This document shows, piece by piece, positions 14,970 to 22,083 of a stretch of 64,000 bases of DNA. Every line of letters begins with the position of its first letter. The first letter of the stretch is position 1. A program made the translations under genes and the position numbers. Under the pieces are notes generated by a model. That model was not told the origin of the DNA. It made no database searches and saw only the letters and a list, made by a program, of their open reading frames with translations. The stretch comes from Gammaproteobacteria bacterium (GTDB lineage: Bacteria > Pseudomonadota > Gammaproteobacteria > UBA4575), in NCBI GenBank assembly GCA_045105615.1, contig JBGCDS010000027.1, positions 3,036-67,035 on the forward strand, given 5' to 3'.

Positions 14970-16028
<1,059 letters not shown>

Positions 16029-16118
16029 AACAGTTAGCCATCCACATTTGATGGTCGGAGGATCACTATAAAACCTCTATTTACATTTGATGCATCCGCA
16101 TCATCCAGGCTACTAATT

Positions 16119-16982
16119 TTGGTCATTGTTTCTGTTGTCATTATGACAATAGATCACCGTTATCAGCACTTACAAGTAGTTCGCTCTTCACTAGCAGCAG
16201 CCACCTATCCATTACAGTACTTGGCACATTTGCCTTCCGCTATTAGTGAAATATTTAGCGAGAATCTTGCTGCGCGCATAGACCTGCTTGATGATAATGA
16301 AACATTACGCGAACAAGCACTTTTCAACCAAGCAAAGCTACAGCGCTTAGCATTACTAGAACAAGAAAATGCACGATTAAGAGAACTGCTCGGCTCACCG
16401 ATTCAGACTTCTCATGAAAAAGTGTTGATTGCCGAAATTTTGTCAGTCGACCTTCATCCCTTCAAACAATTAATCACCATCAACAAAGGCAAACGCCAAG
16501 GCGTGTTTGACGGTCAACCACTGATTGGAGCAAAGGGCATCATTGGGCAAATTATTGAAGTCTATCCGATGCATTCTACTGCGCTCCTCATCTCCGACCC
16601 TAACCATGCATTACTCGCAGAAAGCAATCGGACAAACTTACGAGCACTACTGGTTGGCAGCGGAAAAACTGATCGTGTTGAATTAAAAAATGTTTCTTTA
16701 TCTGCCGATATTCGTGTTGGAGATTTACTACACACCTCCGGCTTAGATGGGCGATACCCTCCCAACTACCCGATAGCAGAGGTTACCGAAATCAATAACC
16801 GACCTGGCGATGCTTTTCTAAATGTAGAAGCTCGACCCCTAGCAGACTTAGACACCATACGAGAAGTATTACTATTATGGACATCGCCCCCTGAAGAAGA
16901 CGAATTAAATTCAGAAGAAAATAGTAGCGATTCAGACACAGCTAACAGCGCTGAGTCTACTACCATGCAAGAAACACCATAG
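16119..16982 (+). CDS. mreC: rod shape-determining protein MreC (conserved KPLF N-terminal region lies upstream of first canonical start)
   Basis: coiled-coil then beta domain; ORF open from 16038 encoding ..IKPLFTFDASASSRLLILVIVSVV with no ATG/GTG/TTG before 16119. Confidence 0.85.
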   Translation: MVIVSVVIMTIDHRYQHLQVVRSSLAAATYPLQYLAHLPSAISEIFSENLAARIDLLDDNETLREQALFNQAKLQRLALLEQENARLRELLGSPIQTSHEKVLIAEILSVDLHPFKQLITINKGKRQGVFDGQPLIGAKGIIGQIIEVYPMHSTALLISDPNHALLAESNRTNLRALLVGSGKTDRVELKNVSLSADIRVGDLLHTSGLDGRYPPNYPIAEVTEINNRPGDAFLNVEARPLADLDTIREVLLLWTSPPEEDELNSEENSSDSDTANSAESTTMQETP

Positions 16983-16983
16983 G

Positions 16984-17466
16984 ATGCGTAAAACAACACG
17001 AACATATTATGTATTGATTGGCTCATTCATCATTGCCACTTTACTCACTATCATGCCTATTCCAGTATGGGCCGAACCATTTCGACCAGAATGGATTTTA
17101 TTGTTAGTCATTTATTGGAGCATGACTACACCAAGATGGATTGGCGTTGGTTCAGCCTGGGGACTTGGACTTATAGTAGACGTATTACGTGGCGCCTTGC
17201 TAGCACAGCATGCATTAGGCTTTGCGCTAACTGCATTTATCAGTATTCGCTTTTATCAACGCGTGCGCATTTATCCATTACATCAACAAGCTTTATTTAT
17301 TGCGATGATCTTATTGCCCCACATGAGTGTTTCATTATGGGTCTATGGAGTACTCGGCCAAGACCCTGAATCCTGGACTTACTGGTCTCCCGCATTAACT
17401 AGCGCCATTGCTTGGCCATGGATTTATATTGTTATGCGTGCCGTCAGAAGAACTTCTGACTTATAG
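16984..17466 (+). CDS. mreD: rod shape-determining protein MreD
   Basis: 160 aa multi-TM immediately after mreC. Confidence 0.85.
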   Translation: MRKTTRTYYVLIGSFIIATLLTIMPIPVWAEPFRPEWILLLVIYWSMTTPRWIGVGSAWGLGLIVDVLRGALLAQHALGFALTAFISIRFYQRVRIYPLHQQALFIAMILLPHMSVSLWVYGVLGQDPESWTYWSPALTSAIAWPWIYIVMRAVRRTSDL

Positions 17467-17499: not shown

Positions 17500-18405
17500 T
17501 TAAGTTCGATTTACCATTAAATTAGCCACGCCCACCATCATCAACGCTACACCAAGTACTAACCACACACTAAATGGTTCGCCTAGCAGATAAATCGCTA
17601 ACACAATAGTGAATATTGGACCTAGCATTCCAACAATTCCTGTTTGCGTGGGACCTATTCGACTCAATGCCTCAGTCATCATAAAGCTTGGAATTACCGT
17701 GCTTAATATAACGAGCATTACTAGCCAGAACCAAGCTGCATGGCTAATAGACAAGTCTGAGAAATCTAACACCACAACACCATGTAACAAACCAAATATG
17801 CAAGAAGAAATCATGGCTATACAAGTAAACAGCTGGGATCCTAAGCGCTTAATATACCGTTTACTAAATAACACATAAAACGCAAAGCTCAATGCAGCTC
17901 CCAACACCATGAGCGTTCCCTCAACTACTCCTTCGCCCACTAGCTTTAACTCATGACCCATGACCACATACAAGCCTGCATAGGTGACAATCAATGAAAT
18001 TATTATTCGTCGTGTAATATTTTCGTTAAAGAAAAAATAACCCAATAGCGCCACCATAAATGGATAAGTAAACAAACTTAAGCGTTCTAATTGTGCGCTA
18101 ATCAGCTCCAAACCCATCAAATCTAATAATGACGCCAGGTAATAACCAAAAAAACCTAATGCAAAGATTGTTATCGTTGTTTTGAAATTTAAACCTATAT
18201 CAGATGACTTCTTAGATAATGACCAAATCAACATTCCTATATAAATGGGCAGTGACATTGCCATGCGCAATACCAGCACCTCATCTGCATCCATATTCTC
18301 CGCATAGAGGAATTTGATAAAGATTGATTTCAATGAAAACAGAAGCGTGCCAAAACCAGCTAGTGCAAAGCCCAGCGATAAATTTTTATCTGGAGCAGTT
18401 TTCAA
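17500..18405 (-). CDS. EamA/DMT-superfamily transporter
   Basis: 301 aa, ~10 TM segments, duplicated EamA-like halves. Confidence 0.7.
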   Translation of the reverse strand: MKTAPDKNLSLGFALAGFGTLLFSLKSIFIKFLYAENMDADEVLVLRMAMSLPIYIGMLIWSLSKKSSDIGLNFKTTITIFALGFFGYYLASLLDLMGLELISAQLERLSLFTYPFMVALLGYFFFNENITRRIIISLIVTYAGLYVVMGHELKLVGEGVVEGTLMVLGAALSFAFYVLFSKRYIKRLGSQLFTCIAMISSCIFGLLHGVVVLDFSDLSISHAAWFWLVMLVILSTVIPSFMMTEALSRIGPTQTGIVGMLGPIFTIVLAIYLLGEPFSVWLVLGVALMMVGVANLMVNRT

Positions 18406-18523: not shown

Positions 18524-19948
18524 CTATGACTTGCCTGATGGATTAGTATATTGATCATTAAGTTTCTGAACAAAGCCATCAGCAGAATCACGTAGTTCGC
18601 TAATTTTATCCATCGCTTTTTGATCCCATCCAGCTAAGCGCCCAAATAATACACTCTTAAACCAACGCGTATTCTTTAGGAATGCTGCTCGCAAATTTCC
18701 ATAGTAACCATCCTCCGCTAAGCCGCGCGCATACCATTTAGCAATAGCGCCTCTAACAATAAAATGCACCAATACAAATACAGCGGCAATAGCAATTAAC
18801 AACACATTAGACATCACACCACCATAGCCATCTGCCGGCATACCTGGAATAGCAAAGCTAAATCCCTTCCAATAGCCATGAGAAATTGTGTACGACAAGA
18901 AAAAAATAAATAACGGAATTAGCACAATGACATCCGCAATCAGCACACGTTTTTTCCACACACTAACTGCTGTTTGCAACTCAGGAACTATTTCTTTTTC
19001 AATGCGATTTGAAAAATTCTCTAGTGCACCAATAATCCTATAAGCACGCTCAACACTTACCTGTGCAATACGTTTAGTAATTTCATGCAAATCAGCATCA
19101 CGCTTGCGTTTATATCTCTCTTCTAAGCCTGGGTCTTCAATTTTAACTGCCGCATCTTTATTATACAAAGTATGGAAGCTGCCGCTAACTAAGCCACCTT
19201 GAGCAATGGCGCGTTGCCATGCTGCGACTACATCCTCTAGATTATCTTCTGCTGCAGTGGTATCAATTTGATTCAAGATAAACATTATCTTATTGGCATC
19301 TTTGCGCCGTACTGTGCCAGCAACCAAGTGTTCCAAAGTATCTCTCATTGCGCCAGGCTCTGGATGTCTGGCATCAAAAAATACCAACACTAAATCAGAA
19401 AGATTAATAATATGATCTGTTATACGTAATGTTGAGTCCCTCTGAGAATCAGCATCAAATCCTGGTGAGTCAATCAAGATTTTGCCTCGCATAACATCAG
19501 TAGGACAGGTTTTTAATTGCAGATAAGTATCAATTCTTGAACCTTCACCTTCAGCTACTTTATCAATTGCTTCACTCATTTGATAAAATGGGAAACGCGG
19601 ATCCGCGTCCAACGCTATTCCGGGCAATACACGCACAGTGTCATCACTGCTAAAACAAAGCACAGTAAACTTATCATCGACGGCTTGGTTCCCCGTCTTC
19701 TGAATAGTGTCACCCACATACTGGTTTATAAAGCTCGACTTCCCTGCCGAGAATGTCCCCAAAATTGAGATCAGAGGCCACCATGAGATTTCTGTCGTGT
19801 ATGAGTCACGTGCATTCAACACACCTAAGCCCAAACCTACCTCATCTAGCTCAATAAATTTATCCACAACAGAGACCAACAGTGGACTCTCTTGCTCTAA
19901 ATGTTTTTGCAGGCTTTTTATCCGATCAGTTGTAATCTTATCTTGCAT
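18524..19948 (-). CDS. dynamin-family GTPase with two C-terminal transmembrane segments
   Basis: G1 GTFSAGKSSFIN, G3 IDSPGFD, G4-like NQID; hydrophobic stretches VLIADVIVLIPLFIFFL and VLLIAIAAVFVLVHFIV. Confidence 0.65.
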   Translation of the reverse strand: MQDKITTDRIKSLQKHLEQESPLLVSVVDKFIELDEVGLGLGVLNARDSYTTEISWWPLISILGTFSAGKSSFINQYVGDTIQKTGNQAVDDKFTVLCFSSDDTVRVLPGIALDADPRFPFYQMSEAIDKVAEGEGSRIDTYLQLKTCPTDVMRGKILIDSPGFDADSQRDSTLRITDHIINLSDLVLVFFDARHPEPGAMRDTLEHLVAGTVRRKDANKIMFILNQIDTTAAEDNLEDVVAAWQRAIAQGGLVSGSFHTLYNKDAAVKIEDPGLEERYKRKRDADLHEITKRIAQVSVERAYRIIGALENFSNRIEKEIVPELQTAVSVWKKRVLIADVIVLIPLFIFFLSYTISHGYWKGFSFAIPGMPADGYGGVMSNVLLIAIAAVFVLVHFIVRGAIAKWYARGLAEDGYYGNLRAAFLKNTRWFKSVLFGRLAGWDQKAMDKISELRDSADGFVQKLNDQYTNPSGKS

Positions 19949-19958
19949 GGCAGTACGA

Positions 19959-20939
19959 CTATTTAGTTAGCTTTTTCATTTTCTTTAATTGCTCAGCAAA
20001 CTCAATACATGGGTCTTGATTGCGCTCACTGGGCGTGAAGTAAATATAATCAAATTGCTGAGGTAAATCAGTATGATCTATATATTCCTCTATATGCATT
20101 TTATCAGGATCAACATTCACAAAAGCAATACTGACAGATTGTTTTCCTAAGCGTTGCAAGTGTACAGGCACACCGATATCTTTGCGAACATGAACCGCGC
20201 CTGCAATCAGAGCCACATTATGCGTATCTGCCATTCTGGCCAGCGATAATGCAAATGATGCATCTTTAGCCAGCTGGGCACGCAATAATGGCTCTGTATG
20301 CGCTATCGGTAAATAGCCGCAATGAGCATCAAAAATCAGTTGTTTAATGGCATCTTTCATGTCACCTGTAATGGAATCACAGAACTCTAGAGATACACCA
20401 AATCTAGATACTCGACATTGCTCACTAGCAGAATATTTTTTTATTTGCTCACGAGTCAGATTCGCCCCTATCATCGGCATCTGATGTTTAATCTGCACCT
20501 CTAAAATAGGTTTATATATTTCCCAATCCCATTGCGCGGATATTTCTTCAAGCTTTTCATGCAAACTTTCTAATGGCTGTTTAAATGAATATTCAGTTTG
20601 TAGCTCAGCCCAGTCATCGTAAGCCAACATCTCAAATACTAAGGCTGAAGGCTTATCTATGGACAGCCATTTCTCTATGGTCTTAGCTTGAGCAATATGG
20701 TGATCTGGATTTGTATGTGTTTCGCCTAGTAAGATAATTTGCTCATGTTGGATATTTTTATCCAGCTGTTGCACAGAAATCCACGTTTTATCTTTAACAG
20801 AGAAAACTTTTCCTACAAATGGGTGGTCTCGATAGTATAGTGACTGCCAATCATCATGTACTGGCGACGCCACGCAACAAGTGAACGACATAAATAACAA
20901 TAAAAGCCAGATATAACGACGCAACCATGTTTGTTTCAT
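19959..20939 (-). CDS. ChaN-family (haem-binding uptake / Tiki-TraB superfamily) exported protein
   Basis: signal peptide; GETHTNPDHH motif characteristic of ChaN/Tiki family. Confidence 0.6.
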   Translation of the reverse strand: MKQTWLRRYIWLLLLFMSFTCCVASPVHDDWQSLYYRDHPFVGKVFSVKDKTWISVQQLDKNIQHEQIILLGETHTNPDHHIAQAKTIEKWLSIDKPSALVFEMLAYDDWAELQTEYSFKQPLESLHEKLEEISAQWDWEIYKPILEVQIKHQMPMIGANLTREQIKKYSASEQCRVSRFGVSLEFCDSITGDMKDAIKQLIFDAHCGYLPIAHTEPLLRAQLAKDASFALSLARMADTHNVALIAGAVHVRKDIGVPVHLQRLGKQSVSIAFVNVDPDKMHIEEYIDHTDLPQQFDYIYFTPSERNQDPCIEFAEQLKKMKKLTK

Positions 20940-20973
20940 TACTACTATTACTCAAATAAAGTTATTACTCAAA

Positions 20974-22083
20974 ATGCTCCCTAACGTCATCACCACCATT
21001 GCCGATTTAGAATCATTTGTAGAACAGATCTCCTCTGCTCCCTGGCTGGCAATGGACACAGAGTTCATGCGTGAATCTACTTATTACCCAATCCTGTGTT
21101 TAATCCAGATTGCAACCGATGATGTCAGCGCATGTATCGATGTACTTACCTTGGATCATATTGACCCATTACTGGAGCTATTGCGACAAAACTCTCAATT
21201 GAAAATTTTTCACTCCTGCCGTCAAGACATGGAAGTATTGTATGCCGAATATCAGCTAATCCCAAAACCGCTATTTGACACTCAAGTCGCAGCTAGCATT
21301 CTAGGCCTCAATGAACAGATCAGCTATGCTGAATTAGTCGCACAAAAATCATCTATTCATTTAGCCAAAACCGAAAGCCGTACTGATTGGAAAAAGCGGC
21401 CACTAAGCGCTGCCCAGATTGACTACGCTTTAGATGATGTAATTCATCTAGGCCCCCTGTGTAAGAAGTTGGAATCTGATTTAGAGACAGAAAATAGAAC
21501 GCCTTGGTTGGCAGAAGAGTGTGAAAAGTTATTACTCTCATCTAACTATTTTGTTTCTCCAGAAGATGCTTGGAAGCAAGTCAAAGGAATAGGCAAACTG
21601 AATGCAAAACAATTTTACTATGTGCGTAAAATTGCTCACTGGCGTGAGCAGTCTGCCCAAACCAAAAACTTACCTAGACGATGGATATTACCTGACCCTG
21701 CCATTCTAGAAACCTGCCAATTAAAAGATTTTAGCGGTGAATCTATCTCGCAATGCCTTAAACAGCATGCACCTAAATCGATGCGCCACTCAAACAATAT
21801 TATTCAAATTTTACAGCAAACCATTCCTGCTGAAATCGTCAATGATCTTCAAGAACCGGCTGACAATAGACTTAGCAAAGAACAGAAAACACTAATTAAA
21901 AAACTTATGGAATTTTCTCGCAACCGCGCTGAACAAATCAATACATCTGCTTCTTTGCTAGCAAATAGAAAGTCATTGGTAGATTTAGTGCTAGGGAAAC
22001 AAAGCAGAGTTGGGTCCGGCTGGAGAAAATCTCAAATTGGCGATGAGCTGGCAACCATTGTTGAATCAGAACCCCAAGAATAA
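20974..22083 (+). CDS. rnd: ribonuclease D
   Basis: 369 aa; 3'-5' exonuclease domain (WLAMDTEF) plus HRDC-like C-terminus. Confidence 0.85.
   Translation: MLPNVITTIADLESFVEQISSAPWLAMDTEFMRESTYYPILCLIQIATDDVSACIDVLTLDHIDPLLELLRQNSQLKIFHSCRQDMEVLYAEYQLIPKPLFDTQVAASILGLNEQISYAELVAQKSSIHLAKTESRTDWKKRPLSAAQIDYALDDVIHLGPLCKKLESDLETENRTPWLAEECEKLLLSSNYFVSPEDAWKQVKGIGKLNAKQFYYVRKIAHWREQSAQTKNLPRRWILPDPAILETCQLKDFSGESISQCLKQHAPKSMRHSNNIIQILQQTIPAEIVNDLQEPADNRLSKEQKTLIKKLMEFSRNRAEQINTSASLLANRKSLVDLVLGKQSRVGSGWRKSQIGDELATIVESEPQE

Follow-up and report, generated by a model that had tools for sequence, protein, structure and literature searches.

The stretch of DNA analysed here, called the window throughout, comprises 64,000 nucleotides of contig JBGCDS010000027.1 from a gammaproteobacterium (assembly GCA_045105615.1). 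On its minus strand lie two adjacent genes, one for a dynamin-like protein, referred to below as the GTPase, and one for a ChaN-like protein, which an earlier reading of the same letters (the original prediction) had put forward as a functional unit. Judged from its sequence, the 474-residue GTPase is a member of the dynamin superfamily, and its gene is chromosomal, single-copy and under very strong purifying selection over its whole length. The adjacency of the ChaN-like gene is a lineage-specific accident of gene order that arose through rearrangement in one lineage, and ChaN is not a dedicated partner. The pair is laid out as follows.

18524..19948, minus strand: GTPase gene, an open reading frame (ORF) of 474 residues for a putative membrane-anchored dynamin-superfamily NTPase, EHD/mitofusin-like and of 'MfnL-type' architecture
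19949..19958, minus strand: spacer TCGTACTGCC of 10 bp from the ChaN stop to the GTPase start, lacking an obvious Shine-Dalgarno sequence
19959..20939, minus strand: ChaN gene, an ORF of 326 residues for a putatively exported ChaN/Tiki-superfamily protein, the upstream member of the pair

The shared strand and the 10-bp spacing are as they had been described, but the order is not: read along the minus strand that carries both, ChaN comes first (5′, upstream) and the GTPase follows downstream. No terminator-like site was found in the 10-bp spacer, and the promoter and terminator scan performed no better than on shuffled sequence. The layout suggests that the two genes are probably co-transcribed in this genome.

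The superfamily assignment is carried by the G domain, whose parts were located as follows.

19166..19774, minus strand: G domain, residues 59-261 (Pfam match, AlphaFold2 model and motifs)
19736-19759, minus strand: G1 motif GTFSAGKS, residues 64-71, invariant in 42 homologues
19583..19612, minus strand: LDADPRFPFY loop, residues 113-122, placed by hidden Markov model (HMM) alignment to the EHD4 structures 7sox and 5mtv and their DPKKPFRKL loop
19460-19471, minus strand: G3 motif DSPG, residues 160-163, invariant in the same homologues
19262-19273, minus strand: G4 motif NQID, residues 226-229, with N226 and D229 invariant

The Pfam model Dynamin_N matched residues 60-226 at 51.8 bits (cut-off 27), covering profile positions 1-166 of 168, and each of the 42 aligned homologues also matched it above the Pfam threshold, which bears out the proposed dynamin membership. 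The dynamin-type G1 and G3 motifs named in the original prediction were likewise recovered. Its third motif, G4, stands in part: the asparagine and aspartate are in place, but the motif is a variant of N/TKxD in which an invariant glutamine replaces the usual lysine. Two threonines, T85 and T95, are each invariant, and either may be the G2 threonine; in the LDADPRFPFY loop residues D116, R118, P120 and F121 are invariant.

The remainder of the protein was predicted to consist of helices arranged around a membrane hairpin. An AlphaFold2 model built from the 42 homologues had a mean predicted local distance difference test score (pLDDT) of 79 and a predicted template modelling score (pTM) of 0.76, and together with hydropathy it gave the following features outside the G domain.

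19826..19939, minus strand: N-terminal helices, residues 4-41, part of a predicted helical bundle (pLDDT 79-94)
18947..19132, minus strand: long helix that follows the G domain, residues 273-334, running straight into the first transmembrane (TM) helix, TM1 (modelled as one helix 273-356, pLDDT 86-93)
18749..18946, minus strand: predicted TM hairpin, with TM1 at residues 335-357, a loop at 357-377 and TM2 at 378-400 (hydropathy peaks 2.57 and 2.60)
18533..18622, minus strand: predicted C-terminal cytoplasmic helix, residues 443-467, followed by the conserved tail FVQKLNDQYTNPSG (helix pLDDT 94-95)

In the structure prediction, which had been proposed as a check, stretches on either side of the G domain combine into a helical bundle, as expected of a dynamin-superfamily protein, and the long helix is continuous with TM1. 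Across the 42 homologues the long helix keeps R278, D286, R293, E300, R301, Y303 and R304 invariant, and also W331. Basic residues stand on the cytoplasmic (outer) flanks of both TM helices; two hydrophobic helices with such flanks therefore predict a hairpin that leaves the soluble parts before and behind it in the cytoplasm. The model is thus read as an inner-membrane protein whose N-terminal G domain and C-terminal tail are predicted to face the cytoplasm, with a loop of about 20 residues between the TM helices that is predicted to be periplasmic and has the family consensus GYWQG..F.PPW. After TM2 the chain continues for about 75 residues as a conserved cytoplasmic tail that terminates in FVQxLNDxYTNPSG and has Q461, N464, P470 and G472 invariant. 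The two TM helices of the original prediction are thus present, but their supposed position at the C-terminus is not, given the tail that follows them.

Three residues within the predicted membrane segments are also invariant in the 42 homologues: D339 in TM1 (18878-18946) and H395 and R399 in TM2 (18749-18817). Conservation of D339, H395 and the loop motif is not what one would usually see in a simple anchor; it suggests a functional contact within the membrane or on its periplasmic side.

Only about 60 residues of helix separate the G domain from TM1, and the expected absence of a long stalk or paddle holds. This distinguishes the protein from BDLP, DynA and LeoA, which have 570-1200 residues, a long neck-and-trunk stalk and a paddle or membrane-insertion tip; the NCBIfam DynA model scored 12 bits against a cut-off of 1600. 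Compared with BDLP, DynA, LeoA, Cj-DLP1/2, IniA and SynDLP, the window protein is unpaired and unfused and carries a true TM hairpin. A tandem dynamin pair was considered and rejected: no paralogue occurs within the 64-kb window and none is adjacent in the related loci described below, where the GTPase cluster has 75 members over 80 loci and at most one per locus. The description of a short, solo, membrane-tethered dynamin is therefore supported.

When a profile of the family was compared with all PDB sequences, EHD4 came first (E 1e-5), EHD2 followed at E 3e-3, and the bacterial dynamins scored E 0.12 (Cj-DLP) and E 0.8 (LeoA). Comparison with EHD structures (PDB 5mtv, 5mvf, 7sox, 2qpt and 4cid) located the resemblance in several places. 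The P-loops, GQYSTGKTTFI in EHD4 and GTFSAGKSTFI here, share the context G-x-[YF]-S-x-GK-[ST]-[ST]-FI; both proteins have a G..…D.F segment after the P-loop and a DP..PF loop after switch I (DPKKPFRKL and DPRFPFYQI), and DSPG and LN-x-x-D are common to EHDs and the window protein. In EHDs the DP..PF segment is the KPF loop, which serves targeting and oligomerisation. The EHD-type fold, a G domain joined to a compact helical domain made of N- and C-terminal helices, is likewise found in the model. The differences are equally clear. EHDs are eukaryotic ATPases that bind membranes peripherally, have NKAD as G4 and end in an EH domain, whereas the window protein has an integral TM hairpin, NQID as G4 and, with no EH or EF-hand match in Pfam, the hairpin and a helix where the EH domain would be; the Pfam model of the EHD helical domain does not match it.

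The linear order of G domain, helix, membrane hairpin and returning helix is also that of mitofusin/Fzo1 (PDB 6jfk, 5gom and 9kfd). The predicted bundle resembles both the EHD helical domain and mitofusin helical bundle 1, with the hairpin emerging at the place of membrane contact or entry in those proteins. However, the window protein is about 300-380 residues shorter than mitofusin/Fzo1 and lacks the second helical bundle (HD2/HR region), and the profile search of the PDB gave no detectable sequence similarity to mitofusin/Fzo1.

The window protein also fits the description of TbMfnL from Trypanosoma brucei (Tb927.7.2410, UniProt Q57XN3), which Morel et al. present as founding 'a new dynamin superfamily' (bioRxiv 10.1101/2023.06.28.546890; also referred to as Curr Biol 2025). 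According to that preprint, TbMfnL has a size of 62 kDa, including a 41-residue presequence, and consists of a G domain followed by a coiled coil and two consecutive C-proximal TM helices; it is an inner-membrane protein oriented towards the matrix, the G1 lysine is needed for its activity, and bacterial homologues occur in Proteobacteria and the Planctomycetes-Verrucomicrobia-Chlamydiae (PVC) group, including a gammaproteobacterial metagenome-assembled genome and the rhodobacteral Rubrimonas (bioRxiv 10.1101/2023.06.28.546890). The order of parts, the short C-terminal region and the size, with a core of about 480 residues, are similar in the window protein, in which the G1 lysine is residue 70 (141 in TbMfnL) and the mitochondrial targeting sequence is absent. 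The topologies are equivalent, the matrix holding the soluble parts of TbMfnL as the bacterial cytoplasm would hold those of the window protein, and the reported bacterial MfnLs fall in Gammaproteobacteria and Rhodobacterales, where the window family also occurs. Compared in this way by architecture, size, topology and taxa, the window GTPase probably belongs to the MfnL family. Peptides derived from TbMFNL primers gave anecdotal likenesses (ILMFDP to LVFFDA at 188, p ~0.12; IWHPLC to SWWPLI at 55, p ~0.04). The named bacterial MfnLs, RTZ59088.1 and WP_093253540.1, did not come up in cluster look-ups or in homology searches started from Thalassospira and Rhodobacteraceae members.

Relatives of the GTPase are numerous and closely similar. 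A word-indexed homology search returned 5124 matches, the best 120 of which were examined; all were 470-520 residues long and 55-96% identical to the window protein, and several homologues are named 'dynamin family protein' by NCBI. The GTPase is thus a new member of an already annotated family. A HMMER search of 1.84 billion representatives gave 158 clusters at E<=1e-30, indicating that the family is compact and slowly evolving. With one genome counted per GTDB species, it was present in at least 563 genomes, the best 80 of which are Gammaproteobacteria, sulphur-oxidising and related (Thiothrix, Cocleimonas flava, Thiolinea, Candidatus Thiodiazotropha, Sedimenticola and Chromatiales). Alphaproteobacterial carriers include Thalassospira, Azospirillum, Rhodospirillum centenum, Roseospira, Magnetospira, Magnetovibrio, Indioceanicola, Sinisalibacter and Rhodobacteraceae, and a member from the last group shares 50% full-length identity with the window GTPase.

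A degenerate paralogous sub-family was seen alongside (P0155, P0157 [Methylobacter, L083/L084:6001-7422], P0160, P0166, P0172). It keeps the family length, the TM hairpin and the tail, with altered motifs (G1 for example GGNSTAKS, G3 DTPNM) and G4 lost. Its members have no Pfam match and are labelled 'P-loop NTPase family protein' or hypothetical by NCBI. Their motifs suggest that they may be pseudo-GTPases.

To place both genes in context, the following neighbours in the window are relevant, in a region of housekeeping genes (gatCAB, mreBCD, rnd and bolA).

17500..18405, minus strand: EamA-family transporter (Pfam EamA, 106.6 bits), co-directional with the GTPase and 118 bp downstream of it
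14985..17466, plus strand: mreB-mreC-mreD (ORFs), convergent with the ChaN-GTPase-EamA string
20974..22083, plus strand: rnd, for RNase D (TIGR01388, 316.6 bits against a cut-off of 299), divergent from ChaN

The divergent start codons of ChaN and rnd are only 34 bp apart (20940-20973), implying that the promoter of one gene lies inside the other or that one start codon is mis-assigned.

Gene neighbourhoods were then compared over 80 related gammaproteobacterial loci (the best 80 of the at least 563 genomes), using tblastn of the window genes and clustering of ORFs, and over six alphaproteobacterial loci. Within 6 kb of the GTPase, 40 of the 80 loci encode an RND permease, about 27-31 a coiled-coil protein, 27 a ParA-like ATPase, 24 a TPR protein and 23 an RND adaptor. 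In Thiothrix, Cocleimonas, Thiolinea and several further lineages the GTPase closes a co-directional string that runs from the RND permease through small proteins, a ParA/MinD-like ATPase, a TPR membrane protein and a single-TM coiled-coil protein (for example Cocleimonas flava, L017:8-7410). In Thiodiazotropha, Sedimenticola and Chromatiaceae, an operon for a 131-residue protein, an RND adaptor and the same RND permease is divergent from the GTPase. Counting a version bridged to mreDC, the cluster was seen in three arrangements. The RND permease is unusually long (1281-1447 residues) and divergent, scoring 435 bits against a family cut-off of 1250.

The same cluster was found in the alphaproteobacteria Magnetospira sp. 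QH-2 (L089:1-11539, FO538765.1) and Sinisalibacter aestuarii (L088:1-6476). In Magnetospira the order is a 131-residue protein, the adaptor, an RND permease of 1447 residues, four small proteins, the ParA-like ATPase, the TPR protein and the GTPase. Identities to the gammaproteobacterial counterparts were 54% for the adaptor, 58% over 1174 residues for the permease, 56% for the ParA-like ATPase and 55% for the GTPase; the TPR protein and a 287-residue protein were recognisably related.

These observations allow two proposals that go beyond a general membrane function, both of them tentative. The first, which we hold to be possible and the less doubtful of the two, is that the family is a prokaryotic relative of the eukaryotic EHD ATPases and of the mitochondrial inner-membrane MfnL proteins, an integral-membrane 'proto-EHD' that acts on the cytoplasmic side and was ancestrally the terminal component of an RND/adaptor/ParA-like/TPR envelope machine. 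Within the literature searched, both the EHD resemblance and the association with RND, ParA-like and TPR genes appear unreported. Nothing relevant was found there on a bacterial EHD-like protein, a 2026 EHD review is silent on prokaryotic relatives, and no paper on an RND-ParA-dynamin cluster was found. The TbMfnL preprint mentions no EHD resemblance, gene neighbourhoods or function of the bacterial members (bioRxiv 10.1101/2023.06.28.546890).

The second proposal, which we regard as somewhat less likely again, is that the GTPase is a membrane-integrity or stress dynamin in the service of an envelope export machine, assembling, positioning or repairing the membrane around the RND system, and that in the window it has become separated from the operon. 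Conservation of the adaptor, permease and ParA-like ATPase between Alpha- and Gammaproteobacteria at 54-58%, in three arrangements, argues for such a link. As a precedent, the mycobacterial dynamin IniA was reportedly linked to drug tolerance and efflux by Colangeli et al. in 2005, and Bacillus DynA offers another analogy. However, the cluster is missing from the window and is absent beside the gene in the window's lineage, and the shared synteny may stem from the genes having been transferred together instead of from a common function. A third and unrelated context for a GTPase homologue was observed in Thalassospira xianhensis (L082:346-8833), where it lies among unannotated genes and an AAA ATPase, with DUF1523 directly upstream and DUF6638 directly downstream.

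The second gene of the pair encodes the ChaN-like protein, two parts of which are of note.

20868..20939, minus strand: signal-peptide-like N-terminus MKQTWLRRYIWLLLLFMSFTCCVA, the sole hydrophobic stretch in a Kyte-Doolittle scan
20697..20726, minus strand: GETHTNPDHH motif, residues 72-81, aligned with LLGEKHDEVKH of the Campylobacter jejuni ChaN structure 2g5g

The Pfam model PF04187 (ChaN/Tiki) matched at 115.7 bits (cut-off 27.7) over profile positions 3-213 of 213, and 2g5g was matched at E 2.9e-9 over residues 54-281. The hydrophobic stretch forms the first 24 residues, which is consistent with export. These results agree with the secreted ChaN-family protein carrying GETHTNPDHH that had been proposed. 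Orthologues retain G72, E73, H75, D79, H80, H81, E103, H206, H250 and R252. With C. jejuni ChaN, a haem-binding lipoprotein, the protein shares the full-length domain, the patterns GExH...H and G..H..K/R.IG.P.H, and the signs of export; it differs in lacking a canonical lipobox and in that its gene adjoins rnd and the GTPase rather than lying within an iron-uptake locus. The protein is probably an exported haem- or metal-binding protein. It is predicted to be periplasmic, on the opposite side of the membrane from the soluble parts of the GTPase.

If the two genes formed a dedicated trans-membrane module, as the original prediction implied, periplasmic ChaN might sense or deliver haem, a metal or an envelope-stress signal and the dynamin would then remodel the membrane. 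The shared strand, the 10-bp gap without a terminator-like site and a conserved periplasmic loop that ChaN could in principle contact speak for such a module, as does an adjacency kept in 12 of the 80 gammaproteobacterial loci (L001-L009, L012, L013 and L015), down to 57-65% GTPase identity. However, none of the 12 comes from outside the window's lineage, and in all of them rnd is syntenic with ChaN, within a syntenic block bolA-rnd-ChaN-GTPase-(EamA)-mreD-mreC-mreB. Because the whole block is syntenic in one lineage, the adjacency of ChaN and the GTPase has no independent weight. Only the closest relatives (L001-L004, GTPase identity at least 80%) have a gap of 10-12 bp; in more distant members (L006-L009, L012 and L015) it widens to 94-243 bp. 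ChaN also diverges much faster, being 30-35% identical where the GTPase is still at 63-65%. No adjacent ChaN was found in the other 68 gammaproteobacterial loci or in any of the six alphaproteobacterial loci, where other neighbours are conserved, and lineages that lack ChaN also conserve the periplasmic loop motif.

Three loci in which the GTPase adjoins mreD-mreC without ChaN (L010, L011 and L052) indicate that the mre adjacency is older than the ChaN adjacency; the EamA transporter stands beside the GTPase only in L001-L003. The comparison of genomes that had been suggested therefore does not find the pair conserved elsewhere, and the functional unit is not upheld; we consider a dedicated module improbable. 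Outside the window's lineage a single ChaN-family gene was seen in the vicinity of the GTPase, in Magnetospira (L089:21372-21539), for a protein with ChaN and PDZ domains (PF04187 and PF13180), about 10 kb from the GTPase homologue and on the opposite strand; this proximity is probably coincidental.

Taking the evidence on both genes together, we consider it rather likely that the GTPase is a membrane-anchored dynamin-superfamily NTPase that uses its hairpin as an anchor and acts in membrane tethering, bending or fusion, probably as a member of the MfnL family, and that ChaN is no dedicated partner. By analogy with EHDs, mitofusins and atlastin, and with the phenotype of TbMfnL, binding of nucleotide would bring G domains together as dimers or oligomers on the cytoplasmic face. 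Hydrolysis could then swing the bundle, which in the model is made up of the N-terminal and C-terminal helices together with the long helix that follows the G domain, against the membrane anchor, and this swing would tether, bend or fuse the inner membrane. That the GTPase serves an RND-type envelope machine, for which IniA is the precedent, is a plausible refinement whose genomic basis comes from outside the window. ChaN would most simply be an unrelated periplasmic protein that shares a transcript with the GTPase after the rearrangement.

Several points weigh against this interpretation. The use of GTP is an assumption, because G4 lacks its lysine and the nearest structure is that of an ATPase. 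Within the G domain, pLDDT is only 51-67 at residues 111-140 and 191-270. Membership of the MfnL family is inferred from the published description rather than from the TbMfnL sequence. Members from Rhodospirillum centenum, Azospirillum (A. doebereinerae) and Thalassospira stand alone among unrelated neighbours, so that the RND link is not universal, and RND, ParA-like and TPR genes were not found within the 64-kb window. Finally, with only 10 bp between them in this genome, the GTPase and ChaN may still be functionally coupled locally, in a way that neighbourhood statistics would not reveal.

What emerges is a compact, very slowly evolving and uncharacterised branch of bacterial dynamins with a real TM hairpin, which looks most like the eukaryotic EHDs and probably corresponds to the bacterial side of the trypanosome mitochondrial MfnL family. 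The pairing with ChaN was not supported and does not merit pursuit as a two-gene system; what deserves further work is the EHD resemblance, along with the association with RND, ParA-like and TPR genes. Because the family occurs in cultured and tractable organisms (Azospirillum, Rhodospirillum centenum, Magnetospira and Cocleimonas flava), its role and the RND link are directly testable, and such tests would bear on the origin of eukaryotic membrane-remodelling NTPases.

Two further identities for the GTPase were weighed against a membrane-anchored dynamin and set aside. That it is an anti-phage defence dynamin of the LeoA/Eleos kind is very unlikely: PADLOC gave a weak and partial LeoA match (24.1 bits, covering 80 G-domain residues) and the original prediction had suggested looking for a phage-sensitivity phenotype, but LeoB and LeoC partners and a tandem dynamin are absent from the 64-kb window, the context is one of housekeeping genes, and the protein shows 50% identity across proteobacterial classes with stable synteny. 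PADLOC returned no match for ChaN and no defence system for the GTPase beyond that partial LeoA hit, and on this, together with the lack of any GTPase match among 72,556 plasmids and 50,697 phages, a defence dynamin or a mobile element was rejected.

Less credible still is an Era/EngA-like ribosome-associated GTPase, for which the names given to several homologues by the Joint Genome Institute (JGI), a Pfam MMR_HSR1 match of 25.5 bits over 30 residues and weak NCBIfam hits could be cited; the NCBIfam scores, 26.9 (cut-off 237) and 21.9 (116) bits for Era and 20.5 (307) bits for EngA, are all far below the equivalog cut-offs, and the dynamin assignment passes the test that had been set for it. 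The automatic JGI names in question, 'GTPase Era involved in 16S rRNA processing' and 'GTPase SAR1 family protein' (P0003, P0025, P0034, P0048, P0066 and others), are misleading; they are generic P-loop mislabels, and 'dynamin family protein' is the correct label.

As to the window as a whole, an Rfam scan of all 64 kb found no family reaching its gathering score. Its guanine-plus-cytosine (GC) content is about 40%, and the GC skew is steadily negative to about 58 kb, after which its sign flips.

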